From: Minisyncoccota bacterium
GTDB taxonomy: Bacteria; Patescibacteriota; Minisyncoccia; RBG-13-40-8-A
Direction: 5' to 3'
DNA length: 54,515 bases
Assembly: GCA_035528175.1 (NCBI GenBank)
Contig: DATKZC010000007.1
Span: forward strand, 1 to 54,515
Positions within the stretch are counted from its first letter, which is position 1. The number at the start of each line of letters is the position of its first letter. The notes below the pieces were generated by a model. It made no database searches. It was given only the letters and a program-made list of their open reading frames with translations, and was not told the DNA's origin. Shown here piece by piece: positions 3,227-54,051 of this stretch. The position numbers were made by a program, and so were the translations under genes.

Positions 3227-3248
3227 CGACCCCGCGCTGGCGGGGTCG
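3227..3248. repeat. GC hairpin CGACCCCGC-gctg-GCGGGGTCG downstream of rpsI (weak terminator or repeat element)
   Basis: 9-bp perfect stem 34 nt past the rpsI stop, with only a short T-tract after it on the minus strand. It shares GCGGGGTC with the hairpin at 18646-18663. Confidence 0.5.
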
Positions 3249-3281
3249 ACATGTATTCTTGAAATAAATAATCCAAGTAGT

Positions 3282-3818
3282 TTACCTCTTTGACCACTGC
3301 GGGGCTTTACGGGCTTTTTTAAGTCCGAATTTTCTACGTTCTTTCTCTCTTGGATCTCTTTTCAAAAATCCTAATTTTTTGAGCCGTTTTCTAAAATTAA
3401 TATCAAATAAAATCAATGCTCTTGAAATCCCGTGCCTGACAGCTTCTGCCTGGCCAGAAATACCTCCGCCTTTAACTTTTACCGTACCTCCAAATTTGTT
3501 TGTCGATTTCAACTTAGTAAATGGCGATTCAACTGTTTGTTGTAAAATAGTAGTCGGAAAATATTCTTTATAATTTTTGCCATTAATCGAAAAATTACCA
3601 TTTTCCATTGACTCTACTGAATCAACAGTATACAGCCTCACCCTAGCAACTGCTCTTTTTCTTCTACCAACTGCTTCAAAATACTGAGCTTTCTTTGATT
3701 TCTTGATTGTTTCCCCGCCAACACTTTTAGAGTTAGGCGGACCTGCCTGTTTGTCAGTCGTAGATTGACTTATGGCGGGTTTTTTAGTTTTTTTAGTTTT
3801 CTTTAATTTCTCCGGCAT
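3282..3818 (-). CDS. rpsI: 30S ribosomal protein S9 with a roughly 45-aa Lys-rich N-terminal extension
   Basis: C-terminal 130 aa are typical S9 (GRRK.AVARV, GGG.SGQAEA.RHGISRAL, ends KAPQWSKR). It overlaps the end of rplM by 26 nt. Confidence 0.93.
   Translation of the reverse strand: MPEKLKKTKKTKKPAISQSTTDKQAGPPNSKSVGGETIKKSKKAQYFEAVGRRKRAVARVRLYTVDSVESMENGNFSINGKNYKEYFPTTILQQTVESPFTKLKSTNKFGGTVKVKGGGISGQAEAVRHGISRALILFDINFRKRLKKLGFLKRDPREKERRKFGLKKARKAPQWSKR
3735..3749 (-). repeat. GC-rich core CAGGCAGGTCCGCC (encodes QAGPP) inside the rpsI N-terminal extension
   Basis: The same CAGGCRGGYCCGCC core, with the same QAGPP reading, occurs in the rpsF C-terminal insert (49425-49439). Confidence 0.5.
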
Positions 3819-4158
3819 ATAATTTTAAATTCTTTATAGTTTTACTTCTTAATGTGTTTTTTGGAAGCATATCATAAATTGCCCTTTTTAACGGCACGCT
3901 CGGGTCTTTTTTTAATAAATTCTTTAATATAATTGTGCTTATCCCGCCTGGATAACCGGAATAATGATGGTATTTTTTGTTTTCCATCTTGTTTCCCGTA
4001 TAAACTATTTTTGCAGTATTGAAAACTATCACTTTATTGTCGCTGACTTTATAGGCTGCAAAATTTGTATCATTTTTCCCACGTAAAAAAACAGCAACTT
4101 CGCTTGCCAATCTCCCAAGCACCTTTCCCGAAGCATCAATTGTATATATCTTTGCCAT
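3793..4158 (-). CDS. rplM: 50S ribosomal protein L13
   Basis: 121 aa. The N-terminus IDASGKVLGRLAS.VA..LRGK and the YSGYPGG motif are typical of L13. It sits directly upstream of rpsI, as in most bacteria. Confidence 0.93.
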   Translation of the reverse strand: MAKIYTIDASGKVLGRLASEVAVFLRGKNDTNFAAYKVSDNKVIVFNTAKIVYTGNKMENKKYHHYSGYPGGISTIILKNLLKKDPSVPLKRAIYDMLPKNTLRSKTIKNLKLYAGEIKEN

Positions 4159-4160
4159 AA

Positions 4161-9987: not shown

Positions 9988-11727
9988 TTATTTTAAAACA
10001 GCCTTGACACGACGCACGCCGGCTGATGATGATTCTTCTTTTAAGATTTTAAAATGTCCGAGCTGGCTGGTTCTTTGCACGTGCGGGCCAGAGCATATTT
10101 CCAAACTGAAAGTTTGCCCCGAGGAATTCGAGGGGGCACTTCCAATTGAATAAACTTTCACTTTGTCTCCATATTTACTTTCAAAAACTCCCATTGCGCC
10201 CATTTTTCTTGCCTCGTCCAAAGGAACCTCACAACAATCAATAGGCAGATTCTTTTTGATTTGTTCATTAACTATATCTTCAATTTCTTTCAATTGTTCT
10301 TTGCTCACTTTTTCCGAGTGGGAAAAATCTAATCTTAATCTTTCCGCAGTAATGTTTGAACCTTTTTGGAAAACATGTTCGCCCAAAACTTTGCGTAATG
10401 CAGCCAAAAGTAAATGCGCAGCAGTATGAAGTTTTGTCACCTGTTCTGAATTATCCGCCAATCCTGATTTAAACTTCCCAGCAGTAGCTGTTCGGGATAA
10501 TTGTTGATGTTTGGCAAATTCCTTTTGAAATCCTTTTGTAATTTCCTCCTCATCGTATTTTATCCCCTTGTTTTTTAATTCTTCTAAATATAGTTCAAAA
10601 GGAATTCCATTGGTTGAAAAAAAATTAAAAGCTGTTCGCCCCGTAATATTCTTTTCTAGTTCTTCTAGTCCCCTTTTAAGTGTTTTAGCAAAAACATTTT
10701 CTTCTTGTATTAGTTGTTTAATAATAAAATCTTTGTTATTTTCCAGTTCTGGCCATTCGTTTTTCATTAAATCAATTACTAATTTTCCAATTTCGTAAAT
10801 AAATAATTTTCTAATTCCAATTTTTTGACCATGTCCAATTGCTCGCCTAATTAATCTTCTTGCCGTGTATCCTTGCTCAATATTTGACGGCACAACTCCA
10901 TCCGCAATAATAAAAACTGATGCACGAATATGGTCAGCAATAATTCTCTCAGATTTTTTATCATAATCAGTTGCCATTTTTTTGATTGCTTCAATAATTG
11001 ATTTTAATGGCTCAATTTCATAAACACTTTTTGTATTATTCCTGCCTGCCGGCAGGCAGGTTAAAATCGCCACAGTTCTTTCAACTCCCATACCCGTATC
11101 AACATTCTTTTGCTTTAATGGTTCATACTTGCCATCCGCGGTTTTATTATATTCCATAAAAACATCATTCCAGATTTCCACGCCATCATAAAACATTTCA
11201 GTGCACGGACCACAAGGACCTGTCTTTCCGGCTGGTCCCCAAAAATTATCTTCTTTATCTAAAAATTTGATTTTTTTAATTCCCAATGATTTCCAGATTT
11301 CAGCGGATTCCAAATCCCGCGGGATTTGTTCCGAGCCTGTCGAGGAACCAGCGAAAACTGAAACTGAAATTCTTTTTTTATCCAATCCTAATTCTTTAGT
11401 CAAAAACTCTAAACTCATCTCTATTGCTTCTTTTTTCCAATAACTTCCAAAACTCCAATTTCCCAGCATTTCAAAAAAAGTTAAGTGCCAGTCATCGCCA
11501 ACTTCATCAATATCGCTGGTTCTAATACATTTTTGCACATTAACTAATTTATCCCCTGCCGGATGCTTTTCGCCCAATAAATACGGCACTAATGGATGCA
11601 TTCCTGCGGTGGTAAATAAAACCGTAGGATCATTTTCCGGAATTAAAGAAGCAGAAGGAATAATTTTATGTCCCCTGCTCTGAAAAAATTTCAAATATTT
11701 TTCTTTTAAATCTTTTGTTGTAATCAT
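9988..11727 (-). CDS. alaS: Alanine--tRNA ligase, short form lacking the C-terminal C-Ala/DHHA1 domain
   Basis: It has the class II catalytic core (FTTAGM, GNWSFGDYWK-like), the editing-domain HTAAHLL...CSGPHV Zn motifs, and ends about 40 aa later. I prefer the ATG at 11727 (the track's TTG is at 11730). Confidence 0.92.
   Translation of the reverse strand: MITTKDLKEKYLKFFQSRGHKIIPSASLIPENDPTVLFTTAGMHPLVPYLLGEKHPAGDKLVNVQKCIRTSDIDEVGDDWHLTFFEMLGNWSFGSYWKKEAIEMSLEFLTKELGLDKKRISVSVFAGSSTGSEQIPRDLESAEIWKSLGIKKIKFLDKEDNFWGPAGKTGPCGPCTEMFYDGVEIWNDVFMEYNKTADGKYEPLKQKNVDTGMGVERTVAILTCLPAGRNNTKSVYEIEPLKSIIEAIKKMATDYDKKSERIIADHIRASVFIIADGVVPSNIEQGYTARRLIRRAIGHGQKIGIRKLFIYEIGKLVIDLMKNEWPELENNKDFIIKQLIQEENVFAKTLKRGLEELEKNITGRTAFNFFSTNGIPFELYLEELKNKGIKYDEEEITKGFQKEFAKHQQLSRTATAGKFKSGLADNSEQVTKLHTAAHLLLAALRKVLGEHVFQKGSNITAERLRLDFSHSEKVSKEQLKEIEDIVNEQIKKNLPIDCCEVPLDEARKMGAMGVFESKYGDKVKVYSIGSAPSNSSGQTFSLEICSGPHVQRTSQLGHFKILKEESSSAGVRRVKAVLK
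10111..10137 (-). repeat. GC-rich element copy (PSxSSGQ family) in-frame in alaS, encoding APSNSSGQT
   Basis: The coding strand GCCCCCTCGAATTCCTCGGGGCAAAC aligns with copies in dnaK, the CsaA-like gene, cysS and the spacer at 38603. Confidence 0.6.
11041..11060. repeat. 20-nt perfect palindrome CCTGCCTGCCGGCAGGCAGG in-frame in alaS (CLPAGR)
   Basis: Self-complementary, 80% GC, and identical to 12687-12706 in mnmA. Confidence 0.8.
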
Positions 11728-12155: not shown

Positions 12156-12169
12156 AATTGTAGCCAAAC

Positions 12170-12206
12170 AGGCCCCGCGCATAACAGCCGGGGCCTAATT
12201 TTTATT
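12170..12206 (+). terminator. Rho-independent terminator (probably bidirectional, shared with mnmA)
   Basis: Stem AGGCCCCG (12170-12177) / CGGGGCCT (12189-12196) followed by AATTTTTATTT. It lies between convergent stops at 12155 and 12220. Confidence 0.7.
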
Positions 12207-12219: not shown

Positions 12220-13245
12220 TTAAAGAATCACTCCTCCACCCATGAGTTCACCGTCTAAGTAAAACACCGCACTTTGACCAGAGGTAATTGCGCGCTGCGG
12301 TTTTTTAAAAACAATTTTACTGCCTTTAATTATTGCATCCGCCATTTTTGCCATGGAACGAATTTTAACTTTACATTTTCCTGTATATGGTTTTCCACTA
12401 ATCCAATTCATATTTTTCACAGCCATTCCTTTTTGCAATAAATCTTTTTTTGATTTGGATACAATTAAAGTATTTTTTTTATAGTCCTTTTTCACTACAT
12501 AATACGGCCCCCCGCTTAATCCTATGTTTTTTCTCTGTCCGATTGTATAAAAAATTAAGCCCTTATGCTCACCAATTTTTTTATTATCCATCGTAATAAT
12601 CGGGTCTGCCACGCAACTGCTGGGACGGGGTAAATCAAAACAAATATCCTGACTTTCTTTTTTATTGAATACTGGTAATTTGAATCCCTGCCTGCCGGCA
12701 GGCAGGTTTTTTGCCAATCCCCTAACTTGTTCTTTGGTATAATCGCCAAGCGGAAATAAAATCTTTGTTAATTGTTTTTGTTTTAAGGTCCAAAGAAAAT
12801 AACTTTGGTCTTTTTTTATGTCTTTAGCAATAAATAATTTTCCGTCTTTAATTCTGGCGTAATGGCCGGTTGCGATAAAATCAGCTTTTAATTGCACCAT
12901 TTTTTCTAATAAAAACCTGAATTTAATATATTTATTGCATTCTACGCACGGATTTGGCGTATTGCCTGATTCATATTCTTTAAGGGTATAATCAATCACC
13001 TGTTTTTTGAATTCTTTGCGCACATCTAAAACTTTAAAATCAATTTTTAGTTTTTTGGCGACAATCTTCGCATCCTGCGGATTACTATTCTTATGCATTA
13101 ACATAAAAATACCGACGACATTATATCCTCCGCCCAAGGCAGACAAGTCGTTTTTTAACATGGCAGCAGCAACAGAACTATCTACTCCGCCACTCATTGC
13201 AATAATTACCCTGCCTCGCCGGCAGGCGGCCCTTTTATTATCCAT
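12220..13245 (-). CDS. mnmA: tRNA-specific 2-thiouridylase
   Basis: 341 aa. It has the PP-loop IAMSGGVDSS, the catalytic CNK.IKF region and DQSYFL. Confidence 0.92.
   Translation of the reverse strand: MDNKRAACRRGRVIIAMSGGVDSSVAAAMLKNDLSALGGGYNVVGIFMLMHKNSNPQDAKIVAKKLKIDFKVLDVRKEFKKQVIDYTLKEYESGNTPNPCVECNKYIKFRFLLEKMVQLKADFIATGHYARIKDGKLFIAKDIKKDQSYFLWTLKQKQLTKILFPLGDYTKEQVRGLAKNLPAGRQGFKLPVFNKKESQDICFDLPRPSSCVADPIITMDNKKIGEHKGLIFYTIGQRKNIGLSGGPYYVVKKDYKKNTLIVSKSKKDLLQKGMAVKNMNWISGKPYTGKCKVKIRSMAKMADAIIKGSKIVFKKPQRAITSGQSAVFYLDGELMGGGVIL
12687..12706. repeat. 20-nt perfect palindrome CCTGCCTGCCGGCAGGCAGG in-frame in mnmA (LPAGRQ)
   Basis: 20/20 identical to the alaS copy but read in a different frame. 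Confidence 0.8.
13210..13230. repeat. Degenerate copy of the palindrome (CCTGCCTCGCCGGCAGGCGGC) at the mnmA 5' end, encoding AACRRGR
   Basis: It differs from the 20-mer by one inserted C and one lost A. It lies just upstream of the PP-loop codons. Confidence 0.6.
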
Positions 13246-13702: not shown

Positions 13703-14826
13703 AATCCCTCCTCTTTTAATTTCTCAATTAATTCTTTTTCTTTTTTAGATAATTTTTGCGGGATTTTGATTTTGATACGCACATACTGGTCGCCTCGGCC
13801 ATAAGAATTCAATCTTGGCATACCTTTTCCTGATAATTTAAACATTTTCCCGCCTTCTGTGCCTGCAGGAATTTTTAATTTTAAATCCCCTTCTAATGTT
13901 GAAATATCAATCTTATCTCCTAATACTGCCTGCGAAAATTTTATTTCTGCATCACAATAAATATCGTCTCTTTTCCTGATGAAAATCTTATGCGGCTTTA
14001 AACGTATGCGCACGTATAAATCTCCTGATATTCCGCCTTTTTTCGCTACCTCGCCTTTTCCTGGAAATTTTATTGTCTGTCCATTATCAACTCCTACCGG
14101 TAAATCAACTTTAATTGTTTCAATTTCACTTACCCTTCCTGTGCCCTTACATTCTTTACATTCTTTTTCATGCAGTTCGCCTTCGCCAGAACACTTCGGA
14201 CAAGTTATAACCTGCGAAAATGTTCCGAAAAAAGTTCTTTTTGTCTGTTGAACTTGGCCATTGCCCCCGCATTCAGGACATTTTTTCTTTCCACTTCCAG
14301 GCTCTCCGCCTGTTCCTTTGCAGTGTTTACAAATAATATATTTTTTTAAATTAATTTCTTTTTCAATGCCTGTAAATGCCTCTTCTAAAGTAATTTCCAT
14401 ATCAACCACAATATCTTTGCCGTGTTCCTTTCTCGTTCTTCTGCCTCCTCCACCTCCATTAAAAAATTGGCTGAAAATATCAGAAAAACTTCCGCCTCCA
14501 AAAATATCTCCTAAATCCCAGCCCGAGGATGGTCCGCCTTGGGCGGAAAATTCTCCTCCTTCTTGATAATTCCTGAAAATATCCTCCCAACTCATACCCG
14601 CACCTCCAAAACCAGCTTGATCAAAGCTTGACCCGAACTGGTCGTATTGCTGACGCTTTTCATCATTGGATAAAACTGAATATGCTTCATTAACTTCTTT
14701 AAACTTCTTTTCATCCCCACCTTTATCCGGATGATGTTGATGAGCAAGCTTTCTGAAAGCTTGCTTTATCTCTTCTTTATTCGCATCTTTATTTACTCCA
14801 AGTGTCTTGTAATAATCTTTACTCAT
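13699..14826 (-). CDS. dnaJ: Molecular chaperone DnaJ
   Basis: J domain with HPD (KLAHQHHPDKGG), a G/F-rich region and four CxxCxGxG zinc-finger repeats. Confidence 0.95.
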   Translation of the reverse strand: MSKDYYKTLGVNKDANKEEIKQAFRKLAHQHHPDKGGDEKKFKEVNEAYSVLSNDEKRQQYDQFGSSFDQAGFGGAGMSWEDIFRNYQEGGEFSAQGGPSSGWDLGDIFGGGSFSDIFSQFFNGGGGGRRTRKEHGKDIVVDMEITLEEAFTGIEKEINLKKYIICKHCKGTGGEPGSGKKKCPECGGNGQVQQTKRTFFGTFSQVITCPKCSGEGELHEKECKECKGTGRVSEIETIKVDLPVGVDNGQTIKFPGKGEVAKKGGISGDLYVRIRLKPHKIFIRKRDDIYCDAEIKFSQAVLGDKIDISTLEGDLKLKIPAGTEGGKMFKLSGKGMPRLNSYGRGDQYVRIKIKIPQKLSKKEKELIEKLKEEGL

Positions 14827-15600: not shown

Positions 15601-17520
15601 TTATTTCTTTTCTGTTTCCCCTTCGGGTATATCCGGATTCTTATCATCTTTTTTCTGCGCGTCTTGCTGGGCTTTATAGAGTTCTGTCCCAACTTTCTGA
15701 ATTGCTTGAGATAATTCATCAGATGCTTTCTTGATTTCACTCACGTAGGAATCTTTTCCGCCCGAGGCGGACTCGCCTTGGGCGAGTATTTTTTTCAGCG
15801 CCTCAATTTTTTCTTCAATTTCTTTTTTGTTCTCTTCTTTTATTTTAGCACCAAATTCTTTTATTGTCCTTTCGGTTGTAAAAACCAAAGTATCGGCGGT
15901 ATTTTTAACATCAACAATTTCTTTTTTCTTCTTGTCTTCTTCGGCGTGGATTTCCGCATCTTTTTTCATTTTTTCAATATCTTCTTTTGACAAACCCGAA
16001 GATGCTTCAATCCTGATTGATTGGATTTTATTTGTGGCTTTATCTTTTGCCGTAACGCTTAAAATCCCATTCGCATCAAGGTCAAAAGTAACCTCAATTT
16101 GGGGAATGCCTTTTGGAGCCGGTGGAATGCCATCCAAAATAAATCTGCCCAATGTTTTATTGTCAGCAGCCATTGGTCTTTCTCCCTGTAGAACATTAAT
16201 TTCAACTGATGGCTGATTATTCGCAGCAGTAGAAAATACTTGCGTTTTAGCAGCAGGAATAGTTGTATTTTTTTCAACCAGTTTCGTCATCACTCCGCCA
16301 AGAGTTTCAATTCCTAATGATAAAGGAGTGATATCCAGAAGCAAAACATCTTTCACATCGCCCTGGAAAATTCCTGCCTGTACAGCAGCGCCCGCTGCAA
16401 CCACTTCGTCAGGATTAATATCTTTATGCGGCTCCTTTCCGAATAATTCCTTTACTTTTTGCTGTATTAACGGCATCCTGGTCTGGCCTCCTACTAAAAC
16501 TACTTCATCAATATCGGACATTTTAAATCCTGAATCATCAACAACTTGTTTAGTGATTTTTGTCGCTTTATCAATATACTCTCCAACTAAATCTTCAAGT
16601 TTTGCGCGGCTAAATTTAATATTTAAGTGTCTTGGCCCATCTGCTCCGCTGGTAATAAAGGGAATATTTACTTCTGTTTCCATTGCCGATGATAATTCGT
16701 GTTTTGCTTTTTCTGCTGAATCTTTTAGTCGTTGCAAAGCCAGCTGGTCTTTTGATAAATCAACTCCTTCCTGTTTTTTAAATTCATCAACCAGCCAATG
16801 CATAATAATCTGGTCAAAATCATCGCCTCCTAAATGCGTATCTCCGCCTGTTGCTTTCACTTCAACTGTATCTTTGGAAACTTCAAGCACTGAAACATCA
16901 AATGTTCCTCCGCCGAAATCAAATACCACAATCTGCTCATCCTTTTTCTTATTTAAGCCATAAGCCAAAGCAGCTGCAGTCGGTTCATTGATAATTCTTT
17001 TCACTTTTAAGCCGGCGATTTCTCCTGCATCTTTGGTTGCTTTTCTCTGCGAATCGTTAAAATAAGCAGGAACAGTGATTACTGCTTCTTCTATTTTTTC
17101 TCCTAAACGGTCTTCGGCATCTTGTTTAAGTTTCTGTAAAATCATTGCGGAAATTTCAGCTGGGCCATACCATTTAGCTTGCCCTGAGCTTGTCGAAGGG
17201 TCACCCAGCTTGATTTCCACCGCTCCTTCTTTTGATTCTCTGATTTCATAAGGTAAAAGTTTTTTATCGCGCTGAACTTCGGCATCAGAATATCTCCTGC
17301 CGATTAATCGCTTTACCGAATAAATTGTGTTTTTGGAATTAGTTACTGCCTGTCTTTTTGCTAAGAGACCAACAAGCCGTTCATTGGCTTTTGAAACAGC
17401 AACAACAGAAGGAGTTGTTCTGTTTCCTTCTTTATTTTCAATTATTCTCGGCTCGCCTGCTTCAACAATCGCCATTGCCGAATTAGTCGTGCCTAAATCA
17501 ATACCTAATATCTTTGACAT
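15601..17520 (-). CDS. dnaK: Molecular chaperone DnaK (Hsp70)
   Basis: 639 aa with canonical [18 protein letters not shown] and [10 protein letters not shown] motifs. Confidence 0.97.
15754..15783 (-). repeat. GC-rich double hairpin in-frame in the dnaK C-terminal lid region, encoding [10 protein letters not shown]
   Basis: Coding strand reads CTCGCCCAAGGCGAG + TCCGCCTCGGGCGGA, two adjacent short hairpins. Its composition resembles the CGCCAAGG..CGGCG family. Confidence 0.5.
17176..17202 (-). repeat. GC-rich element copy (PSxSSGQ family) in-frame in the dnaK N-terminal domain, encoding DPSTSSGQA
   Basis: The coding strand GACCCTTCGACAAGCTCAGGGCAAGC aligns with the alaS, CsaA-like and cysS copies. 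Confidence 0.6.
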
Positions 17521-17544: not shown

Positions 17545-18096
17545 TTATTTACTTATTTTAACTTTACTTGCTCTTATAACCTTTCCATTTAATTTATACC
17601 CTTTTTGAATCTCTTTGGCGATAATGTTGGTTTCAGTCCCTCGACCAAGCTCGGGACTAATTTCCACTTCGCCTACGGCTTCGTGGAAATTAGGATCAAA
17701 TTTTTCTCCAACAGCATCAATTTCTTCAACTCCGCTGGATTTTAGAATATTTTTAAATTGATTGTAAATCTGTTTAATTTCTTCTTGCCCGAGACCCTCT
17801 GCGTCTTTATGATTATTTTCAAAATGCTTCATTGCCAATTCAAAACTATCCAAAACCGGCAAGATTTCATAAATCAAGCCCTCATTAGCAAACTTAAAAA
17901 TCTCGGAAATTTTCGCTTCCTGTTCTTTTTTATAATTTATCAAATCAGCTTTTGCTCTCTGCCACCCAGCCAAATATTCCGCGCGTTCCTGCTCGGTTTT
18001 TTTCAACTGCTCTTTAATCTTTTTAACCTTATCTTCTACTTTTTCAGAGCCGTCTTCGCTTACATATTCAATTTTTTCCGTCTTTTCTTTACTCAT
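17545..18096 (-). CDS. grpE: Nucleotide exchange factor GrpE
   Basis: 183 aa with a coiled-coil N-terminus. It carries R..AD..N.RKR-like (RAKADLINYKK) and LPVLD.FE.A motifs and sits between hrcA and dnaK. Confidence 0.93.
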   Translation of the reverse strand: MSKEKTEKIEYVSEDGSEKVEDKVKKIKEQLKKTEQERAEYLAGWQRAKADLINYKKEQEAKISEIFKFANEGLIYEILPVLDSFELAMKHFENNHKDAEGLGQEEIKQIYNQFKNILKSSGVEEIDAVGEKFDPNFHEAVGEVEISPELGRGTETNIIAKEIQKGYKLNGKVIRASKVKISK

Positions 18097-18107: not shown

Positions 18108-18133
18108 CCGCCTACGCCAAGGCTTCGGCGAGA
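18108..18133. repeat. GC-rich hairpin element (CGCCAAGGCTTCGGCG core) filling the hrcA-grpE spacer
   Basis: CCGCCTACGCCAAGGCTTCGGCGAGA, with a 6-bp stem CGCCAA/TTCGGCG-type hairpin at 18115-18130. It aligns with the in-gene copies in recR and trpS. Confidence 0.65.
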
Positions 18134-18583
18134 CTAGGAGAAATCCTCCAACATTTCTTTTAACTTATTTATTAATTCTATATTATAATCGTATCTCATT
18201 CTCGTCGGACTGATTAAACCGATGATTTCGCGCTTTTTATGCAATGTTTTATGCTCTGTGATAATCAAGGAATAACTGTGAGTTCTAATCATCTCAACTC
18301 CAACTTGTCCGCATAAATGATTGAACTGCTTTTCAAATATATCCTTAGACGGCTGACCAATAAAAAACCGATACGCTTTTTCTGTAGGAATTCTTCCCGC
18401 AGACGTGTGCGGCTGAATTAAATAACCCGAGCTTTCCATTTCCGTCATTTCATTTCTTAAGGTAGCAGAACTTAACCCGAGATCGCGGGCTAATGCTTTT
18501 GAACTTACTGGCTTGGGATTATCAACATATTCCTTAACAATAAGCTCCAAAATTTTCTGCTGCCTTTCCGTCATTTTATCCAT
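18134..18583 (-). CDS. hrcA: Heat-inducible repressor HrcA, miniaturised (149 aa versus about 340 aa typical)
   Basis: It has an N-terminal winged helix (RQ..IL..IV..Y.....PVSS..LA.......SSATLRNEM..ME..GYL..PHTSAGRIPT.KAYR) and the conserved C-terminal IG.I.PTRM.Y motif. The central roughly 190 aa are absent. Confidence 0.85.
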   Translation of the reverse strand: MDKMTERQQKILELIVKEYVDNPKPVSSKALARDLGLSSATLRNEMTEMESSGYLIQPHTSAGRIPTEKAYRFFIGQPSKDIFEKQFNHLCGQVGVEMIRTHSYSLIITEHKTLHKKREIIGLISPTRMRYDYNIELINKLKEMLEDFS

Positions 18584-18590: not shown

Positions 18591-18619
18591 ATAATAGTAA
18601 ATTAGCACTCCCTTGTCAA
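18591..18619 (-). promoter_or_regulatory. hrcA operon promoter (leaderless)
   Basis: Minus strand reads TTGACA (18614-18619)-17 nt-TATTAT (18591-18596), then 7 nt to the ATG at 18583. The -35 box lies inside the CIRCE spacer. Confidence 0.65.
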
Positions 18620-18628
18620 GAGTGCTAA
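18602..18628. promoter_or_regulatory. CIRCE operator (HrcA binding site), perfect consensus
   Basis: TTAGCACTC-ccttgtcaa-GAGTGCTAA matches TTAGCACTC-N9-GAGTGCTAA exactly. Confidence 0.9.
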
Positions 18629-18677
18629 TCAAAAACTCGTGCCTGCCCCGCAACTGCGGGGTCAAGAGAGTGCTAAT
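18615..18677. repeat. GC hairpin insert flanked by a direct duplication of the CIRCE right arm
   Basis: GTCAAGAGTGCTAAT (18615-18629) and GTCAAGAGAGTGCTAAT (18661-18677) flank a 31-nt segment. That segment contains the hairpin CCCCGC-aact-GCGGGG (18646-18661). Confidence 0.6.
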
Positions 18678-18678
18678 T

Positions 18679-33164: not shown

Positions 33165-33297
33165 TGAACTTAATTTATTATTTTATTGTTTTCCTCTTAT
33201 CCCGACCTTTGGAATTGTTTATAAGCGAAACAAAAAACCCTTTCTTTGACCCCTCAAAAGAGGGCTTTGGAAAAGGTCCCTAACTCGCTCTGATAAG

Positions 33298-38571: not shown

Positions 38572-38600
38572 ATCTTATTCCACTTAATTACCATTGTCAA
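38572..38600 (-). promoter_or_regulatory. Putative dcw (mraZ) promoter
   Basis: Minus strand reads TTGACA-17 nt-TAAGAT, with a roughly 60-nt leader carrying a GGGGGA SD. Confidence 0.55.
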
Positions 38601-38602
38601 CC

Positions 38603-38632
38603 CCCCGACTACGCTCGGGGCAAGTCCCTTGC
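38603..38632. repeat. Intergenic GC-rich element copy (two hairpins) of the ...CTCGGGGCAAG family
   Basis: CCCCGA-ctacgc-TCGGGG followed by GCAAG-tcc-CTTGC. The string GACTACGCTCGGGGCAAG aligns with the alaS and dnaK in-gene copies and with GACTCCGCTCGGGATAA in ftsK. Confidence 0.6.
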
Positions 38633-38639
38633 GAAAACT

Positions 38640-41245: not shown

Positions 41246-41705
41246 CCGATACAAATCTACAAATGGTATACGAATGCTACAAATCTTAATTAAGAATTCT
41301 TTTTGGTTTTATATAAGAATCTCTAAAATTCACAATTAACCCTAATCGCAACTTAGCGGCTCCAAGATATCTTTTCATCTGATAATAATCTTCTCTTAAA
41401 ATAAACTTTTTCGCCTTTAAATCAATTATGATTTTATCATCTATTAAAAAATCTACTTTATTCCCCTTGATTTCATAATCGTCATTATGAATTGGCACCT
41501 CTTTTTCTCTCTCGTATTTTATATTGTCTTTTTTAAATTTAATCTCAAGTAAATCAGCATACTGTCTTTCTTTACAAAATCTGCCTAATTCGTTATGTAC
41601 ATCAAAGAATAGACCCGTTAATTTATAAGAAACATCTGGATAAATAATTTTCACATTTTTTCTCATTTGTAGATTCGTATAAAAATTCGTTGATTCGTAT
41701 CGGGG
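41246..41705. mobile_element. GxxExxY-nuclease cassette bounded by roughly 40-bp imperfect inverted repeats
   Basis: The left end CCGATACAAATCTACAAATGGTATACGAATGCTACAAATC (41246-41285) matches the reverse complement of the right end (41667-41705), CCCCGATACGAATCAACGAATTTTTATACGAATCTACAA. Identity is about 80%, and the ORF fills the interior exactly. Confidence 0.6.
41286..41666 (-). CDS. GxxExxY protein (PD-(D/E)XK nuclease superfamily)
   Basis: 126 aa. LTGLFFDVHNELGRFCKERQYADLL fits the G....E..Y helix, and D.(D/E)xK-like VDFLIDDKIIIDLKA and GLIVNF are typical of the family. Confidence 0.75.
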   Translation of the reverse strand: MRKNVKIIYPDVSYKLTGLFFDVHNELGRFCKERQYADLLEIKFKKDNIKYEREKEVPIHNDDYEIKGNKVDFLIDDKIIIDLKAKKFILREDYYQMKRYLGAAKLRLGLIVNFRDSYIKPKRILN

Positions 41706-46419: not shown

Positions 46420-46761
46420 ATGATAAACTATGATGATTTTCAAAAATTAGATATACGCATTGGAACGATTTTGGAAGCAGAAAAAATTGAAAATGCTGAT
46501 AAATTATTAAAGTTAAAAGTAGACTTAGGTCCCTCGAGTACTTCAGGACAACCAGAACTGCGTGTTCTGGTTGCAGGAATCGCAGAATCTTACAAACCGC
46601 AATCCTTGATTAATAAACAGATTCCTATTTTAATTAATTTAGAACCACGCACTTTGCGCGGAGTTGAAAGCCAGGGAATGATTCTGGCATGCGTTGTTAA
46701 TAAAAAAGCTATCTTATTAAAACCAATTAAAAAGGTTCCAAATGGAACTAAAATAAAATAA
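46420..46761 (+). CDS. tRNA-binding domain protein (CsaA/EMAP-II-like)
   Basis: F.KLDIR.G.I..AE.I..ADKLL.L.VDLG, then GI...Y.P..L..K......NL.PR.LRGVES.GMIL are typical motifs. The ATG at 46420 has TATAAT (46408-46413) 6 nt upstream. Confidence 0.8.
   Translation: MINYDDFQKLDIRIGTILEAEKIENADKLLKLKVDLGPSSTSGQPELRVLVAGIAESYKPQSLINKQIPILINLEPRTLRGVESQGMILACVVNKKAILLKPIKKVPNGTKIK
46531..46551 (+). repeat. GC-rich element copy (PSxSSGQ family) in-frame, encoding PSSTSGQ
   Basis: GGTCCCTCGAGTACTTCAGGACAACC aligns with the dnaK and alaS copies. It interrupts the conserved VDLG-E..R.IV segment. Confidence 0.6.
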
Positions 46762-46766: not shown

Positions 46767-47774
46767 ATGCGAATATTCAGCGGAATACAACCAACTGGAG
46801 AATTACATATCGGAAATTATTTAGCGGTGATTAAACAATGGGTTAATTTACAAAAAAAAGCAAAATGCGTTTTTTCTGTTGTTGATTTGCATGCAATTAC
46901 CATTCTATATAATCCAAAGCAAATGCAGAAAAATATCCTTTCCGTGACAATGGACTATTTGGCAGCAGGAATAGATTTTAAGAAAAATATTATTTTTGTC
47001 CAATCGCATATCAAGGAACATTCCGAATTGGCATGGCTCTTGGAAACCATCACTCCAATGGGCGAGTTGCAGAGAATGACCCAATTTAAAGAAAAATCAG
47101 AACAAAATAAAACGAATATTAACGCAGGGCTTTTTTCTTATCCTGTGTTGATGGCAGCTGATATTTTATTATACAAGGCTGACACTGTGCCGGTTGGCGA
47201 AGACCAACAACAGCACGTGGAATTAAGCAGAACTTTGGCAAGAAAATTCAACAACAAATTTGGGAAAATCTTTCCCGAACCAAAAACGCAACTCCCTGAA
47301 TTCGGCGCAAGAATAATGTCGCTAGTTGACCCGTCGCAAAAAATGAGTAAATCAATTCCGCAGGGATGCGTTTTCCTTTCCGATAAGCCGGAAATAATCA
47401 GGCAGAAAATAAGAGCTGCGGTCACGGACTCCGACAAAGAAGTGAAATTCGACGAAAAAAACAAACCAGCAATTTCTAATCTGCTTACTATTTATCACCT
47501 TTTCTCTAATAAATCCATCTCTGATATTGAAAAGAGATATCAAAACAAAGGCCCCGCCTTCGCCGAGGCTTCGGCGGGCAAGTATGCGGAATTTAAAAAA
47601 GATTTAGCGGAAATAGTGGTTAATGGATTAAAAAAATTCCAAGAAAAAAGAAAACAGCTTGAAAAAAATCCCCAGCAGATTAAAAAAATTCTTGCTGACG
47701 GAGCAAGAAAAGCGCAAAAAATCGCAACCCAAACAATGAAAGAAATTAAGGTAAAAATGGGGTTAATTCCTTAA
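46767..47774 (+). CDS. trpS: Tryptophan--tRNA ligase
   Basis: 335 aa. GIQPTGELHIGNY (HIGH region), GEDQ.QH.EL.R and KMSKS are canonical. Confidence 0.95.
   Translation: MRIFSGIQPTGELHIGNYLAVIKQWVNLQKKAKCVFSVVDLHAITILYNPKQMQKNILSVTMDYLAAGIDFKKNIIFVQSHIKEHSELAWLLETITPMGELQRMTQFKEKSEQNKTNINAGLFSYPVLMAADILLYKADTVPVGEDQQQHVELSRTLARKFNNKFGKIFPEPKTQLPEFGARIMSLVDPSQKMSKSIPQGCVFLSDKPEIIRQKIRAAVTDSDKEVKFDEKNKPAISNLLTIYHLFSNKSISDIEKRYQNKGPAFAEASAGKYAEFKKDLAEIVVNGLKKFQEKRKQLEKNPQQIKKILADGARKAQKIATQTMKEIKVKMGLIP
47550..47582 (+). repeat. GC-rich hairpin element in-frame in trpS, encoding (G)PAFAEASAGK
   Basis: GGCCCCGCCTTCGCCGAGGCTTCGGCGGGCAAG contains the hairpin CGCCGA-ggct-TCGGCG. It is the same element as in recR but read in another frame. 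Confidence 0.7.
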
Positions 47775-49058: not shown

Positions 49059-49541
49059 ATGGAGAGCGAAGTAAAACAATATGAATTAATTTGTATTTTA
49101 GAGCCTCATTTAGAAGAGGCTGATTTAGATAATTTCAAGCAATCATTTGAGAAGATTGTGAGCGACAACAATGGCCGGATTATCCATTTTATGGACTCAA
49201 AAAAATGCAACCTTATTTACCCTATTAACAAACAGAAACAAGGTATTTATCTCGTATCTCATATTTCACTGGAGCCGAAAAACATTGCCAATATTTCTAA
49301 TGAACTAAAAACAAATAAAAATGTTTTAAGGAGTTTAATCACTATTTTGGAAACCCCGTCAGAGCCAATAACCGAAAAGCCGAGAAAGATTATAAAAAAA
49401 TACGCCACCAACGCAAAACGCAGACAGGCGGGCCCGCCCGCTTCGCAGCGAGACGAGCCACGATCCGAAAGTTCGAGTAAAGATGATAAAATAAAACTAG
49501 AAGAAATCGATAAAAAATTAGACGAATTGGTAGGTCTATAA
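49059..49541 (+). CDS. rpsF: 30S ribosomal protein S6 with a roughly 60-aa C-terminal extension
   Basis: The first roughly 95 aa are S6-like (YE...IL.P.L.E......). It sits in the conserved rpsF-ssb-rpsR order. The tail is basic/acidic and carries a GC-rich insert. Confidence 0.85.
   Translation: MESEVKQYELICILEPHLEEADLDNFKQSFEKIVSDNNGRIIHFMDSKKCNLIYPINKQKQGIYLVSHISLEPKNIANISNELKTNKNVLRSLITILETPSEPITEKPRKIIKKYATNAKRRQAGPPASQRDEPRSESSSKDDKIKLEEIDKKLDELVGL
49419..49478 (+). repeat. 60-nt GC-rich insert in the rpsF tail, encoding RRQAGPPASQRDEPRSESSS
   Basis: It contains the 12-nt perfect palindrome GGCGGGCCCGCC (49427-49438) and the CGCT-tcgc-AGCG hairpin. The CAGGCGGGCCCGCC core matches rpsI 3735-3749. 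Confidence 0.6.
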
Positions 49542-51402: not shown

Positions 51403-51802
51403 AAATTATTCTTCTTATTACTGTATTAATTTTATTAAAACGATTTTTGGATTCTATTTTGATTGTATTCACGCCGTCAATAAGATTAATTTCTACTTTA
51501 AAATTTCCTTCGCGGTCCAGATATGTTTCTTGTCCATCAATCAATAAATATGCTGTTGAATCGGTTTTGCCGATAATCTCGAAAGTCTTCTGGGTTATTG
51601 ATATGTCGGCTGGCGGCTGGAATACTTCCAGCTTTGGCGCTTTGATTAAAAAACAAATTTCACGATAAAAATACCACGCCACAAAAATCAAGAAAATTGT
51701 AAAAACAATTAAAGCAATTCTTTTCGGCGTAATTATCCAAATTTTGCTTCCTTTAATCGGCTGCAAAGGGCTGTCTTTAATTTCAATCTTCATTTTCCTC
51801 AT
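51377..51802 (-). CDS. Hypothetical membrane-anchored protein with a beta-rich ectodomain
   Basis: 141 aa with one TM helix ([17 protein letters not shown]), then an Ig-like-looking segment (F.I.GKTD....L.I.G......EGNF...I.L..G.N.I). Confidence 0.55.
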
Positions 51803-51804
51803 AT

Positions 51805-54051
51805 TTAAAACTCATCTTCTTTGGGTTCAGATTCTTTCAGCTTTTCTTCATCTTCCTCAATTTCCTCTTCTATTTCTTCTTTTTCTTCCTCATTTATGTT
51901 TTCTTCAACAACTTCATCTAAATCGCTTAATGGTTCTCTCGACTCCGCTCGGGATAAATCTTCTTTTCCTATTAAAACATCTCTTGGCTTGGCTCCGTCT
52001 GCAGGACCGACAATCCCCTGCATTTCTAGCATGTCCAATAAACTTGCCGCGCGCGCATAACCGATTCTAAACATTCTTTGTAAATATGATGCTGAGGCCT
52101 TGCCAGTTTTAATTACCATATCTTTTGCCTCATCTAACAACGGGTCATCCAATGCTAATCCACTGCTACCCATTACTCCTTTTTCTTCCGGCGCTTTAGT
52201 GATTTCTTCCTCATACTCAACCTCACCAGCTTCCTTTTTTAGAAATTTAACCACGCGCTGGACTTCTTTTTCAGAAACATAAACACCCTGAATTCTGCGT
52301 GGCTTGCCCACATCACCTGCCATAAACAACATATCGCCATTGCCGAGCAATCTCTCGGCTCCAGACGTATCCAAAATAGTTCGAGAATCAACATTTGAAG
52401 CAACCTGGAAAGCAAGTCTACAAGTAATATTTGCTTTAATCAAACCAGTAATGACTTCAACAGACGGGCGCTGAGTAGATAAGACCAAATGAATGCCCAC
52501 AGCGCGCGACATTTGCGCTAAACGCACAATCGAACCTTCAACTTCTTTACCATAAGCAGCCATAATGTCAGCAAGTTCATCAACAATAATTACAATAAAC
52601 GGCAGAATATCAGCCGGAGATTTTTTCACAATTTTCTCATTATAAGAAGCCAAATCTCTTGCTCCTATACTGGATAAAAGCTTATACCTCTCCTCCATTT
52701 CTTTAATCGCCCATTTAAAAGCATTGATGGTCTTATTCGTATCAACAATAACCGGAGTTAATAAATGAGGGATACCATTATATAAAGGAAGCTCAACTCG
52801 TTTCGGGTCAATCATAATAAATTTTAATTCCCAAGGTGACTTTTGATAAAGCAAGCTGCTGATAATTGTATTGATGCAAACGCTTTTTCCGGTTCCTGTT
52901 GCTCCGGCAATCAACATATGCGGCATTTTAATAAGATTTGCCCAGACAGATTCACCCGCAACATCGCGACCTAAAGCAAGATTAAGATTGTGGCCATTTT
53001 TCTTATAATTGTATTCGTCCATCATATTCCTCAAACGGACTAAAGTTGCGCTCTTGTTCGGAATTTCAATGCCAACCAAGGAACGTCCGGGAATCGGCGC
53101 TTCAATCCTAATAGGATGAGCTGCCAAAGATAAAGAAATATCGCGGTGCAAAGTAGTAATTTTTGAAAGCTTTACCCCGCCCGCGGGTCTTAAGGTATAT
53201 TGAGTAACGGTTGGACCAACATTAACTTCTGCCATTTCCACTGGAATACCGAAATTATTCAATGTTTTTTCAATAATACTCTGATTAAGTTTTATATCCC
53301 CGCTCGCCGGGCATCCTCTATCCTCTTCCAGTAAATCCAAGGGCGGAAAAGTATAATCCTTGATATTTGTAGGAGTTGTGGCTAATAATTCTTCCCTATT
53401 TCCTTCTTCCGATTCTTTTACATCAAGCTTTTGCTTAGAAAATATATTTTTCACCAAACTGGCAACCTTCTTTTCTGACTGGTCAAAACCGATTCCTTTG
53501 ATTTCCTTAGAAAGTTTTTCTGCAATTACTTCTTCCTCTTCTTTCTCTTCTTTTGGGGCCCTTTTTAAAGGAATATTAAAAGCAATAAGCACGGAAATAA
53601 AAAGCCCGGCTGCAAAAACAACCAAACTCGCCCACTTACCAATAAGTTTTAAAAATGGCCAAGAAAAAATATATCCGAGCCAGCCGGCAATACGAGTATC
53701 ATTCGGAAAAAATATCTGAATAATCGCCAGAAAACAAAGAATAAAAAGAAGTATTCCTAATAAAGTTGAAAGATAAACATTTTTGTGAATCTCTTTTAAA
53801 ATTGCGATACCTGCAGAGACAAAAGCCAATGGCACCAACCACAGGCATTTACCAAAAATAAACCTTGAACCATCAAGCAGATACTTACCCAACACCCCAC
53901 TGGCTGACTGGAAACTTAAAACAAAAAGTACTGCTAGAGTGAAAAGCACAACCACGATTACACCGTGTTTGGTTTCGGGGCTGATATTCAAATAAACCTT
54001 CTTTTTTTCTCTATATTCTTTCTTGTATTTCTTGCGCTTTCTTTTCGACAT
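51805..54051 (-). CDS. ftsK: DNA translocase FtsK/SpoIIIE
   Basis: 748 aa with 4 N-terminal TM helices, a linker, a motor domain (Walker A GATGTGKS, Walker B VIIVDELAD) and a gamma wHTH (ASYLQRMFRIGYARAA.L.D.LE). The tail is acidic. Confidence 0.94.
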   Translation of the reverse strand: MSKRKRKKYKKEYREKKKVYLNISPETKHGVIVVVLFTLAVLFVLSFQSASGVLGKYLLDGSRFIFGKCLWLVPLAFVSAGIAILKEIHKNVYLSTLLGILLFILCFLAIIQIFFPNDTRIAGWLGYIFSWPFLKLIGKWASLVVFAAGLFISVLIAFNIPLKRAPKEEKEEEEVIAEKLSKEIKGIGFDQSEKKVASLVKNIFSKQKLDVKESEEGNREELLATTPTNIKDYTFPPLDLLEEDRGCPASGDIKLNQSIIEKTLNNFGIPVEMAEVNVGPTVTQYTLRPAGGVKLSKITTLHRDISLSLAAHPIRIEAPIPGRSLVGIEIPNKSATLVRLRNMMDEYNYKKNGHNLNLALGRDVAGESVWANLIKMPHMLIAGATGTGKSVCINTIISSLLYQKSPWELKFIMIDPKRVELPLYNGIPHLLTPVIVDTNKTINAFKWAIKEMEERYKLLSSIGARDLASYNEKIVKKSPADILPFIVIIVDELADIMAAYGKEVEGSIVRLAQMSRAVGIHLVLSTQRPSVEVITGLIKANITCRLAFQVASNVDSRTILDTSGAERLLGNGDMLFMAGDVGKPRRIQGVYVSEKEVQRVVKFLKKEAGEVEYEEEITKAPEEKGVMGSSGLALDDPLLDEAKDMVIKTGKASASYLQRMFRIGYARAASLLDMLEMQGIVGPADGAKPRDVLIGKEDLSRAESREPLSDLDEVVEENINEEEKEEIEEEIEEDEEKLKESEPKEDEF
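51931..51957 (+). repeat. GC-rich element copy inside ftsK in antisense orientation to the gene, read as LSRAESREP
   Basis: The plus strand GACTCCGCTCGGGATAA aligns with the intergenic GACTACGCTCGGGGCAAG at 38607-38624. Confidence 0.45.

Follow-up and report, generated by a model that had tools for sequence, protein, structure and literature searches.

The 54,515-nt stretch of DNA analysed here (contig DATKZC010000007.1; hereafter the window) is of the Parcubacteria type of Patescibacteria, has a GC content of 36% over its 54.5 kb and is dense in housekeeping genes. It holds about 20 GC-rich islands, mostly within these genes, and we consider it likely that the islands are non-autonomous DNA insertion elements, GC-rich, ultrashort and of several families, whose copies are translated and then tolerated in protein loops. 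At least 15 of the islands are clean multiple-of-3 insertions without a counterpart in orthologs, and all of the in-gene islands compared with orthologs are in frame, stop-free and missing from close relatives. Read from the sequences of a graded series of relatives, the overall pattern is one of continuing gain followed by decay, not of loss of ancestral loops. By analogy, the short GC-rich units look like an undescribed bacterial counterpart of the Rickettsia palindromic elements (RPEs) and of the GC clusters of yeast mitochondria.

GC-rich islands exceed expectation and fall into six families

An earlier note on this DNA, made from its letters alone, had described GC islands against an AT-rich background, and shuffling bears this out. 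Windows of 20 nt with a GC content of at least 0.8 number 12, against 4.6 (maximum 9) in triplet shuffles, and windows of 18 nt with at least 14 G+C number 33, against 16 ± 4; strong GC islands are 2–2.6 times commoner than in triplet shuffles. The density of GC islands per locus was discarded as a measure of element load, being too noisy, as conserved coding segments rich in G, P and A also score.

Comparisons were made with loci from a dnaK-centred scan of species-representative genomes, which gave 80 loci, nearly all labelled Patescibacteria, Parcubacteria or Paceibacterota. One of these relatives, L001 (the 626-kb chromosome OZ246412.1), has a DnaK 88% identical to that of the window and is syntenic with it at ~6–28 kb, i.e. 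over ~22 kb. A closer relative, L278 (GCA_018897295.1), was reached through 90%-identity protein clusters and shows 85–88% nucleotide identity over 14 kb; L001 served as the outgroup for the window and L278. Judging from its relatives, the genome behind the window would be roughly 0.6 Mb in size. Pfam confirmed the hosts rpsI, alaS, mnmA, dnaJ, grpE, a truncated hrcA, cysS, recR, a tRNA_bind (CsaA-like) gene and trpS, and matches in the PDB confirmed dnaK, mnmA, trpS and recR; rpsF and ftsK are named from their translations only.

As a check independent of GC content, every indel between the window and L001 was listed across all shared proteins. All 10 window-specific insertions of at least five residues have a GC content of 0.50–0.77, compared with 0.26–0.60 for the 10 L001-specific insertions. 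The islands sort into six nucleotide families:

F1: the perfect palindrome CCTGCCTGCCGGCAGGCAGG of 20 nt, 21 nt long as inserted, in alaS and mnmA, with a 27-nt variant at the mnmA N-terminus
F2: CCNTTCGACARGCTCAGGGCARGC, a sharply bounded 24 nt, in dnaK (dnaK-1), with degenerate copies in alaS, csaA and cysS
F3: two tandem stem-loops of 30 nt, in dnaK (dnaK-2) and dnaJ
F4: a 30-nt hairpin-type unit, in recR, trpS and the hrcA-grpE spacer
F5: GGCCCGCCCGCTTCG...GCGAGCC, palindromes of 29–39 nt, in rpsF and rpsI
F6 (related to F2): CTCGACNNNGCTCGGG, in grpE and ftsK on the antisense strand, and in the clp-mraZ spacer

A GGGCAAG 3' end is common to F2, F4 and F6. With up to three mismatches, the F1 20-mer occurs twice in the window against 0.00 expected from 100 dinucleotide-preserving shuffles, and the F4 24-mer occurs three times, again against 0.00. 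The copies in the window, by coordinates and strand, are:

3705–3770, minus: 66-nt insert in the N-terminal extension of rpsI, encoding ISQSTTDKQAGPPNSKSVGGETIK
10114–10137, minus: alaS-2, degenerate F2-like, GCCCCCTCGAATTCCTCGGGGCAA, peptide APSNSSGQ
11040–11060, minus: alaS-1, F1 of 21 nt, the 20-nt palindrome CCTGCCTGCCGGCAGGCAGG plus A, peptide TCLPAGR
12686–12706, minus: mnmA-2, F1 of 21 nt, peptide LPAGRQG, in a frame that differs from alaS-1
13129–13146, minus: mnmA-3, 18-nt insert, peptide LSALGG, TCCGCCCAAGGCAGA-like and resembling half of F3
13207–13233, minus: mnmA-1, F1 variant of 27 nt, peptide KRAACRRGR, in the third frame
14518–14547, minus: dnaJ copy, F3 of 30 nt in the G/F-rich region, TCCGCCCAAGGCGGACCATCCTCGGGCTGG, peptide SAQGGPSSGW
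15757–15786, minus: dnaK-2, F3 double hairpin of 30 nt, CTCGCCCAAGGCGAG TCCGCCTCGGGCGGA
17177–17200, minus: dnaK-1, F2 unit of 24 nt, CCCTTCGACAAGCTCAGGGCAAGC, peptide PSTSSGQA, inserted at GA^T AAA
17635–17658, minus: grpE-1, F2/F6-type in antisense, AGTCCCGAGCTTGGTCGAGGGACT, peptide SPELGRGT
17785–17817, minus: grpE-2, an older insert of moderate GC with no family assignment, NNHKDAEGLGQ
18109–18132, plus: hrcA-grpE spacer copy, F4, differing from the F4 24-mer at one position
21358–21387, plus: cysS-1, F2 with a duplicated head, CCTTCGAC CCTTCGAC CCGGCTCAGGGCCT
25488–25517, plus: recR copy, F4 of 30 nt, GCCCGCCTTCGCCAAGGATTCGGCGAGGCA, peptide ARLRQGFGEA
38598–38634, plus: F2/F6-like copy in the clp-mraZ spacer, CCCCCCGACTACGCTCGGGGCAAG and then a short hairpin, antisense to the flanking genes
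46531–46551, plus: decayed F2-like copy in the CsaA-like (tRNA_bind) gene, CCCTCGAGTACTTCAGGACAA, peptide PSSTSGQ
47553–47582, plus: trpS copy, F4 of 30 nt, CCCGCCTTCGCCGAGGCTTCGGCGGGCAAG, peptide PAFAEASAGK
49431–49459, plus: F5 in the C-terminal extension of rpsF, GGCCCGCCCGCTTCGCAGCGAGACGAGCC, peptide GPPASQRDEP
51935–51954, minus: F6-type in antisense in the C-terminal tail of ftsK, peptide SRAESRE, assigned by cluster membership only

The in-gene islands named in the earlier note are real, although the dnaJ copy, the two grpE copies and the third mnmA copy had been overlooked; a further GC-rich segment of ftsK at 53169–53189 (RPAGGVK) is probably a native conserved FtsK motif and not a copy of an element. 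Each in-gene island tested brings neither a stop codon nor a frameshift, as had been claimed. Rfam at gathering thresholds recognized two tRNAs only in the window and no family on any island.

The inserts are gains at sites that are empty in relatives

The window, L278 and L001 place the insertions in order. Three inserts (dnaK-1, mnmA-1 and grpE-2) are found in the window and L278 and not in L001, seven (grpE-1, dnaK-2, dnaJ, mnmA-2, mnmA-3, alaS-1 and alaS-2) are found in the window only, and two, both in alaS, are found in L278 only (a 39-nt palindrome and an F4-like insert, SSYAKASEDK); the outgroup has none of them. The same picture emerges with wider sampling. The alaS-1 site is also empty in nine further AlaS orthologs, the mnmA-2 site is empty in all 44 closest MnmA homologs inspected, and dnaK-2 is present in the window alone among 81 DnaK sequences. 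The recR insert is missing from L001, L002 and 15 other RecR orthologs, the dnaJ insert from P0004 and P0005 (91% identical), the rpsI insert from P0015 and P0016 (about 90% identical), and grpE-1 from P0008 (88% identical), which shares grpE-2. The L002 orthologs lack the trpS insert and the residues SSTSGQP (7) of the CsaA-like gene, dnaK-1 is missing from other close relatives as well as L001, and in L001 and L002 hrcA abuts grpE without the F4-bearing spacer. The alaS-2 position reads GD---FSCE in L278 and GTPDC--PYSC in L001. Relative to L002, L006 and others, cysS-1 is an 8-residue insertion, and an AT-rich segment of similar length at this site in L001 is probably a decayed older copy.

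Homologous residues in orthologs from unrelated phyla, which the earlier note had named as the finding that would overturn its proposal, were not seen, as structures of DnaK, MnmA and TrpRS are without the segments: E. coli DnaK is short by 8 residues at dnaK-1, MnmA structures have a 7-residue gap at mnmA-2 and a 6-residue gap at mnmA-3, and the Bacillus TrpRS structure shows an exact 10-residue gap. Filled and empty sites give insert lengths of 18–39 nt, or 48 nt when nested, with no target duplication at alaS-1, mnmA-2, dnaK-1, dnaK-2 and recR.

Elsewhere in Patescibacteria the families recur in other genes, sites, frames and strands. The dnaJ F3 string is also present in dnaJ of L005, L014 (twice) and L024; mnmA-3 is present at the same site in P0020, P0026 and P0117; and mnmA-1 is patchy among MnmA homologs (P0018, P0048 and P0050 are positive). 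Tandem copies occur in L014 dnaJ and in L287 mnmA (four 33-nt units), besides arrays of F2. In the MnmA alignment of 119 Patescibacteria homologs, more than 20 positions hold rare insertions, and element-family peptides (LSALGG, LPAGRQG, PACRQAG, NLPAGR, GPASTR.., WLAWRAGN, PPAGG and PAEASAKEG) are recognizable at at least 10 of these, which argues that the phenomenon is general in Patescibacteria. That the inserts arise as an artefact of assembly, binning or sequencing has a negligible probability: the sequences do come from metagenome assemblies only, but the same inserts and families appear in frame in independent assemblies of separate projects, with NCBI, ENA, JGI and Logan among the sources, and window proteins are found identically in two or three contigs.

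A second type of in-frame insertion in the MnmA homologs is AT-rich and distinct from the GC-rich families. These insertions are simple-repeat-like, e.g. (AAATCC)n read as KSEIQNPKSK, and also QRNSKFKI and YESRIKNC, and they occupy fixed sites in several lineages (L286, 10361–10414; P0030, P0036, P0042, P0054, P0075, P0110 and others).

The conserved unit is DNA, with a filter on the encoded peptide

All three frames of F1 are used in the window (TCLPAGR in alaS, LPAGRQG in mnmA and AACRRGR at the mnmA N-terminus), and F4 is read on one strand as ARLRQGFGEA in recR and as PAFAEASAGK in trpS. On the opposite strand, F4 is read as APAEASAKAG in L286 mnmA, at a site that is filled likewise in ~11 other MnmA homologs. 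The exact F1 20-mer lies at another mnmA site in L285, and a 39-nt F5 palindrome is shared by L278 alaS and L285 mnmA on opposite strands and in different frames. Units of the F2/F6 type are in sense in dnaK, alaS, csaA and cysS and in antisense in grpE and ftsK, grpE-1 clustering with the copies at 38601 and 51936. Further matches join unrelated genes: the trpS F4 string is present in grpE of L050 in the same frame, the rpsF copy matches an L005 grpE insert at 28/29 positions with one 3-nt gap, and the F5-like GC core of the rpsI insert (3736–3749) matches the rpsF copy, with RQAGPP in the same frame. The earlier note had thus been right that one string is read in different frames (recR and trpS; alaS and mnmA) and on both strands, and that the unit is DNA rather than peptide, as the same strings span frames, strands, genes and spacers.

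These readings bear directly on an explanation at the level of the peptide, in which loops rich in Gly, Pro, Ser and Ala, ancestral or convergent, would be GC-rich through their codons and lost in relatives. The inserts are indeed rich in G, S, A, P and R, the frames are biased to the most loop-friendly peptide, the substitutions among DnaK copies are mostly synonymous, and an F2 copy in a tricorn protease sits in a hypervariable low-complexity linker. However, identical strings of 20–30 nt in unrelated genes, different frames, both strands and spacers are not expected of such loops, and the GC content at third codon positions of the inserts (0.625, a figure biased upward because the inserts were partly chosen for GC) is well above the 0.377 that host codon usage predicts for these residues (p < 5e-5). 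Outgroup polarity indicates gains, with reciprocal ones in L278 too; a single origin at DnaK site 1 (the dnaK-1 site) would cost 21 precise losses; and the edges of the F2 logo are sharp at the nucleotide level whatever the frame. The multi-frame, multi-strand copies largely refute the peptide-loop explanation, and we regard it as very improbable.

A peptide-level filter nevertheless acts on top of the DNA-level process, as indicated by a strong frame bias: F3 is in one frame in 8/8 cases, and F2 is mostly in the PSTSSGQA frame. Among the DnaK copies of F2, codon positions 1, 2 and 3 hold 7, 5 and 19 of the differences, respectively (p = 0.0013), and this third-position excess suggests that the insert is translated and under purifying selection, translation thus being inferred from the substitution pattern only. 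The insert-spanning junction peptides would be ...ARLRQGFGEASNK in RecR and ...GPAFAEASAGK in TrpRS. The window MnmA was predicted with AlphaFold from a 119-sequence alignment (mean predicted local distance difference test score, pLDDT, of 87.8), and in the model all three inserts lie in coil with lowered pLDDT: mnmA-1 at the N-terminus (pLDDT below 50), mnmA-3 in the loop between H21-31 and E42-49, and mnmA-2 in the loop after H171-178 (pLDDT below 50 at residues 182–184).

Folding does not unify the families. Compared with shuffles, F1, F3 (dnaK-2) and F4 (recR) fold well (z of -2.8 to -4.5; alaS-1, dG -15.0 and z = -4.5; dnaK-2, dG -20.3 and z = -3.9; recR, z = -2.8). Folding is weak for F3 in dnaJ and F4 in trpS (z = -1.3 and -0.7), and F2 (dnaK-1, z = +0.7), the rpsF copy of F5 (z = +0.4) and the ftsK island fold no better than shuffles. 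The label of hairpin given in the earlier note therefore holds for F1, dnaK-2 and recR and fails for F2, rpsF, trpS and ftsK, which fold like shuffles, and the hairpin was dropped as a unifying feature.

Stable hairpins in several units raise another explanation, that ribosomes bypass the inserts, in the manner of T4 gene 60 or the mitochondrial byp elements, or that they are taken out of the RNA. Bypass elements are believed to descend from the GC-rich mobile clusters of yeast mitochondria (PMC4464245). Bypass or splicing would, on the other hand, require neither the multiple-of-3 length nor the freedom from stops seen in all in-gene copies; matched take-off and landing codons are missing (dnaK-1 is flanked by GAC and AAA); and the third-position bias points to selection on the encoded peptide. 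Skipping of the inserts is accordingly a very remote prospect.

F2 has sharp ends, a nucleotide-level target and a wide distribution

In a logo of 44 distinct F2 copies, information drops from ~2 bits to ~0 bits exactly at the 24-nt boundary at both ends. The two internal F2 sites in DnaK share the same empty sequence, GGN GAY ^ AAR, at conserved D-K junctions, which make up 0.8% of DnaK junctions, and the F2 copy of a GlyRS gene on an AT-rich metagenome contig is likewise at D-K (ADD-PSTGSGQA-KKYF). The 48-nt forms (L013 and L024) consist of a second F2 variant nested at the internal GAC^AAG of the first copy; because this nested junction is not D-K in the reading frame, the target preference is at the nucleotide level.

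At DnaK site 1, F2 is present in six scattered lineages (the site is filled in L012, L013, L022, L036 and L037 besides the window and L278), and sister taxa at distances of 0.06–0.11 are empty. At the second DnaK site it is present in L020 and L024, which differ by a DnaK distance of only 0.02 and yet carry 24 nt and 48 nt, respectively, at one site; L012 and L075 have F2 in the C-terminal region of DnaK. On a neighbour-joining tree, site 1 requires 6 gains, or 1 gain plus 21 precise losses. The flanks of site 1 follow the species tree, local minus global identity being +0.014 for carrier pairs and +0.006 for carrier/non-carrier pairs; recent transfer of a DnaK allele is therefore unlikely, and horizontal transfer of the insertion allele was set aside as an explanation.

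These data also bear on spread by recombination, in which DNA-uptake or gene-conversion signals are at work: alleles with a favoured GC-rich motif would be preferentially taken up or converted, and ectopic conversion would keep the families homogeneous. Patescibacteria depend on competence and DNA uptake, the same element occupies the same site in several lineages at dnaK-1, mnmA-1, mnmA-3 and dnaJ, the near-identical DnaK of L020 and L024 carry different forms at one site, and no transposase was found among the window ORFs scanned, all of which would suit such a process. Set against this, carriers show no excess similarity around DnaK site 1, where the flanks track the species phylogeny, and the discrete, sharp 24-nt ends are unlike known uptake sequences (uptake signal sequences, USS, and DNA uptake sequences, DUS), which arise by point substitution and not by discrete insertion. 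Moreover, first arrival at new sites, as with the seven window-only inserts, still needs an insertion step, and nesting at a specific internal junction indicates targeted insertion. We consider spread by recombination unlikely, although it is the least improbable of the alternatives.

The 21-nt core of F2 was found in 42 viral-contig stretches and in at least 120 metagenome-contig stretches, on contigs of 35–73% GC. On the AT-rich contigs F2 lies in long open reading frames (ORFs), including GlyRS and ProRS, in sense in 10/10 and in three frames. One carrier of 65% GC encodes the tricorn protease mentioned above, whose nearest homologs (75–82% identical) are labelled Acidobacteriota, and the insert is missing from all 17 homologs aligned. 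Restriction to Patescibacteria does not therefore hold for F2, the commonest family. When an F2 dimer was compared by BLAST with the plasmids of PLSDB and the phages of GenBank, all matches were weak (20–26 nt or of lower identity, E ~0.01–0.3), so F2 is not evident in cultured plasmids or phages. For the other families, scans of viral contigs with long F3, F4 and F6 patterns gave 0 matches, and a shorter F4 pattern gave 5, all at 65–70% GC, two with an extended F4 arm and too few to interpret. For F1 the exact 20-mer turned up in 35 stretches of viral contigs, most of them GC-rich; as F1 is built from CCTG/CAGG repeats, these are not taken as homologous.

Where contigs are GC-rich, F2 is arrayed head to tail at 24-nt intervals, with up to at least 5 units in a 704-aa ORF (L162, 1914–2078; L187, 1162–1230; L200, 4641–4751; also L121, L122 and L157). 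There it is often followed by other recurrent modules (GCTCTGGGGCACCC; CTCGACTACGCTCGGG).

A candidate mechanism and the points that weigh against it

In the proposed mechanism, a trans-acting enzyme would copy single units, new copies being made at the DNA level from existing ones and inserted in A/T-rich sites, in the case of F2 at the specific target GAY^AAR without target duplication. The copies would be transcribed and translated as extra loop residues. In a gene-dense genome, the survivors would be those that are in frame, stop-free and in a tolerant loop, with small or flexible residues; filters of survivorship or selection, where almost no non-coding space exists, would then account for lengths divisible by 3, the lack of stops and the bias in frame. 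Afterwards the copies would decay through the AT-biased mutation of the genome. By analogy, a trans-acting single-strand enzyme, HUH/RAYT-like (RAYT, REP-associated tyrosine transposase, from repetitive extragenic palindromes, REPs) or IS200/IS605-like (IS, insertion sequence), is the likeliest candidate for the copying machinery, and REP/RAYT or IS200/IS605-type transposition is the best-fitting analogue because of the short target, the lack of duplication and the orientation bias.

What the comparisons themselves show are insertion polarity, family structure, the use of several frames and both strands, A/T-rich targets with a specific one for F2, self-nesting, tandem arrays in relatives, bursts particular to a lineage and, in MnmA, placement in loops; the copying machinery is conjecture. 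Several observations weigh against this account. No transposase or RAYT was found among the 20 window ORFs scanned with Pfam, the other large ORFs looking like housekeeping or membrane genes, and neither terminal inverted repeats nor target-site duplications were found at the elements. F2 is without a significant hairpin. The frame bias (F3 in 8/8, and F2 in sense in 10/10 long ORFs of AT-rich contigs) needs strong selection or an unexplained coupling. The shared F2 site in unrelated lineages could reflect ancient presence and many precise losses, and the conservation of F2 across phyla is hard to square with decay in place unless a conserved master copy or a recognition requirement exists, neither of which was found. 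In the search for a mobilizing gene within the window, no candidate emerged besides a small PD-(D/E)XK superfamily protein (PF13366, E = 2e-25) at 41286–41666, next to tRNA-Val, which is the only nuclease-like product among the scanned window ORFs.

A bolder extension, to which we give somewhat less than even credence, is that F2, and perhaps the other families that share the GGGCAAG 3' end, are 'nano-elements': sharply bounded, non-coding units of ~24 nt whose sequence is conserved across phyla, which would integrate at GAY^AAR through a widespread enzyme and be a major ongoing source of loops in the essential proteins of streamlined Patescibacteria, among them chaperones, aminoacyl-tRNA synthetases, ribosomal proteins and proteins of recombination.

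Relation to known systems

RPEs (PMC10969869), intragenic REPs (PMC3733652) and the GC clusters of yeast mitochondria (PMC4464245) all behave as these elements do. By length and base composition the nearest are REPs, the short intragenic CGTC/GTAG REPs and the yeast clusters, RPEs being more remote. No description of such elements in Patescibacteria was met in the literature searched, in keeping with the statement of the earlier note, nor was a paper that prints the F2 string or its peptides, searches with nucleotide and peptide strings being empty. Of all parts, it is the properties of F2 that are likeliest to be new.

Like RPEs, the units comprise multiple families of selfish repeats lying in frame in unrelated housekeeping ORFs, and RPEs persist in their host proteins as additional peptide segments that still allow folding (PMC10969869, PMC1779305). 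The likeness seen by the earlier note thus extends to in-frame insertion, retention and lineage-specific gains and not to length or, for F2, to palindromic structure. The units do not qualify as members of the RPE families. Classic RPEs are about 150 bp (PMC10969869), each RPE unit encodes its own conserved peptide and RPEs are confined to Rickettsia and relatives, whereas the units here are 5–7 times shorter (21–48 nt), fall outside the range of ~100–150 bp with a conserved family peptide, and in F2 cross phyla. Two of the RPE families, RPE-4 and RPE-6, are themselves short REPs that bear a CGTC tag (PMC3733652), which is missing here.

The REPs and REPINs (REP doublets forming hairpins) are GC-rich palindromes of 20–40 nt, as some of our units are, and like ours they have several families per genome and occur as singles, dimers and arrays; REPs are presumed mobile via single-stranded DNA. 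For the short CGTC/GTAG REPs, Di Nocera et al. documented intragenic copies, among other hosts in Opitutus terrae and R. conorii, which sometimes lie at the same gene position in different species (PMC3733652). REPs are mainly extragenic, whereas ~16/19 assigned window copies are inside genes. The stem-loop trait of REPs is seen in the F1, dnaK-2 and recR copies and not in the rpsF copy or in F2, which is also without a palindrome. When inspected, none of the families F1–F5 ends in GTAG or CGTC; CGTC is only internal, in the 39-nt F5 palindrome, and GTAG is only in the loop of the F6 reverse strand.

The comparison with yeast mitochondrial GC clusters (M1–M4, G and V) is by description and not by sequence. 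Both are class-structured, partly palindromic, GC-rich islands in AT-rich genomes, mobile and strain- or lineage-specific, with several consensus classes, tandem arrays and degenerate copies, and both are sometimes inside genes (VAR1/rps3 and rRNA in yeast) where they alter product size. The yeast clusters are organellar, 30–80 bp and mostly intergenic, whereas the units here are bacterial (in the dnaK operon, in ribosomal protein genes and in Patescibacteria relatives), 21–48 nt and mostly in essential genes, and F2 lacks a palindrome and occurs in more than one bacterial phylum. For the yeast clusters no dedicated enzyme is known (PMC4464245).

Other systems fit less well. Miniature inverted-repeat transposable elements carry terminal inverted repeats and generate target-site duplications; no duplication was seen at five sites, and F2 has no terminal repeats. 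Bypass elements differ in that all copies here are multiples of 3 and stop-free with differing flanking codons, and USS/DUS, which accumulate by substitution, differ from copies that are discrete indels with sharp ends. The IS200/IS605 elements (IS608, ISDra2) insert beside a short specific target without target-site duplication and with an orientation bias. As a mechanistic analogue only, they may compare with F2 in these three respects, and also in that F2 bears a target-like sequence (TCGAC) that would permit nesting. They differ from the units here, which are 24 nt, have no transposase gene and, in F2, no evident subterminal hairpins; no Y1 enzyme was identified here.

Spacer hairpins, terminators and neighbouring genes

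The earlier note had also listed five non-coding copies, of which those in the hrcA-grpE (F4) and clp-mraZ (F2/F6-like) spacers stand and the following three have no family assignment:

18641–18663, strand not assigned: GC hairpin upstream of CIRCE (controlling inverted repeat of chaperone expression), flanked by repeated TTAGCACTC(TC)TTGAC
22257–22299, strand not assigned: GC-rich imperfect inverted repeat in the cysS-fibre spacer, just upstream of a 443-aa ORF
33128–33153, strand not assigned: double hairpin in the spacer upstream of the tasA-like gene

The islands at 3226–3250, 12169–12195 and 18685–18720 each consist of a hairpin and then a T-run and read as ordinary terminators, including the island with which the earlier note began its series (3226–3250).

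The CIRCE operator (TTAGCACTC-N9-GAGTGCTAA) lies upstream of hrcA (within 18601–18680, minus strand), with a further half-site, TTAGCACTCTCTTGAC, ahead of it. Repeated TTAGCACTC..TTGAC brackets the GC hairpin CCCCGCAGTTGCGGGG, which is missing in L001 and L002, both of which carry a single CIRCE; the doubled half-site looks, from its sequence, like an insertion-associated duplication. The hrcA gene itself (18134–18583) encodes only 149 aa, i.e. the N-terminal winged-helix domain alone, and is equally short in L278 (150 aa); the L286 version has 172 aa and matches the HrcA domain. In L278, a 92-aa ORF with a GIY-YIG domain (740–1018) lies directly upstream of hrcA and has no counterpart there in the window.

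The 443-aa ORF (22328–23659; the 'fibre' of the earlier note) lies between cysS and dnaB, begins with a signal or transmembrane segment and has no Pfam match. It is a lineage-specific insertion, as cysS and dnaB are adjacent in L001 and L002. Upstream of the tasA-like gene (33117–33165, minus strand), the adjacent GC hairpins CCCGCGAAGCGGG and TTCGCCGTAGGCGAA lie inside an 11-nt inverted repeat, CCCCGTTAAAT / ATTTAACAGGG; these hairpins have no Rfam match and could form a structured 5' leader. Across 1–54515 the GC skew follows the coding strand and changes sign as gene orientation does, with negative values over minus-strand genes and positive ones at about 20–26 kb and 43–50 kb.

Significance

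If the insertion-element interpretation is true, a sizeable share of the length variation in core proteins of the Candidate Phyla Radiation (CPR) would be selfish DNA a few codons long and not adaptive change. The proteins concerned are DnaK, DnaJ, GrpE, the Ala-, Cys- and Trp-tRNA synthetases, MnmA, RecR, S6 and S9, with GlyRS and ProRS in related contigs. This would affect alignments and phylogenies, the judging of gene calls in metagenome-assembled genomes and the reading of 'CPR-specific insertions'. The sharp ends, defined target, self-nesting and cross-phylum spread of F2 allow a concrete search for the enzyme responsible, and the elements would give a tractable bacterial system in which to approach the mobility of mitochondrial GC clusters, a problem of long standing. 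Finally, the series formed by the window, L278 and L001 provides dated insertions with which to study how proteins absorb random loops.

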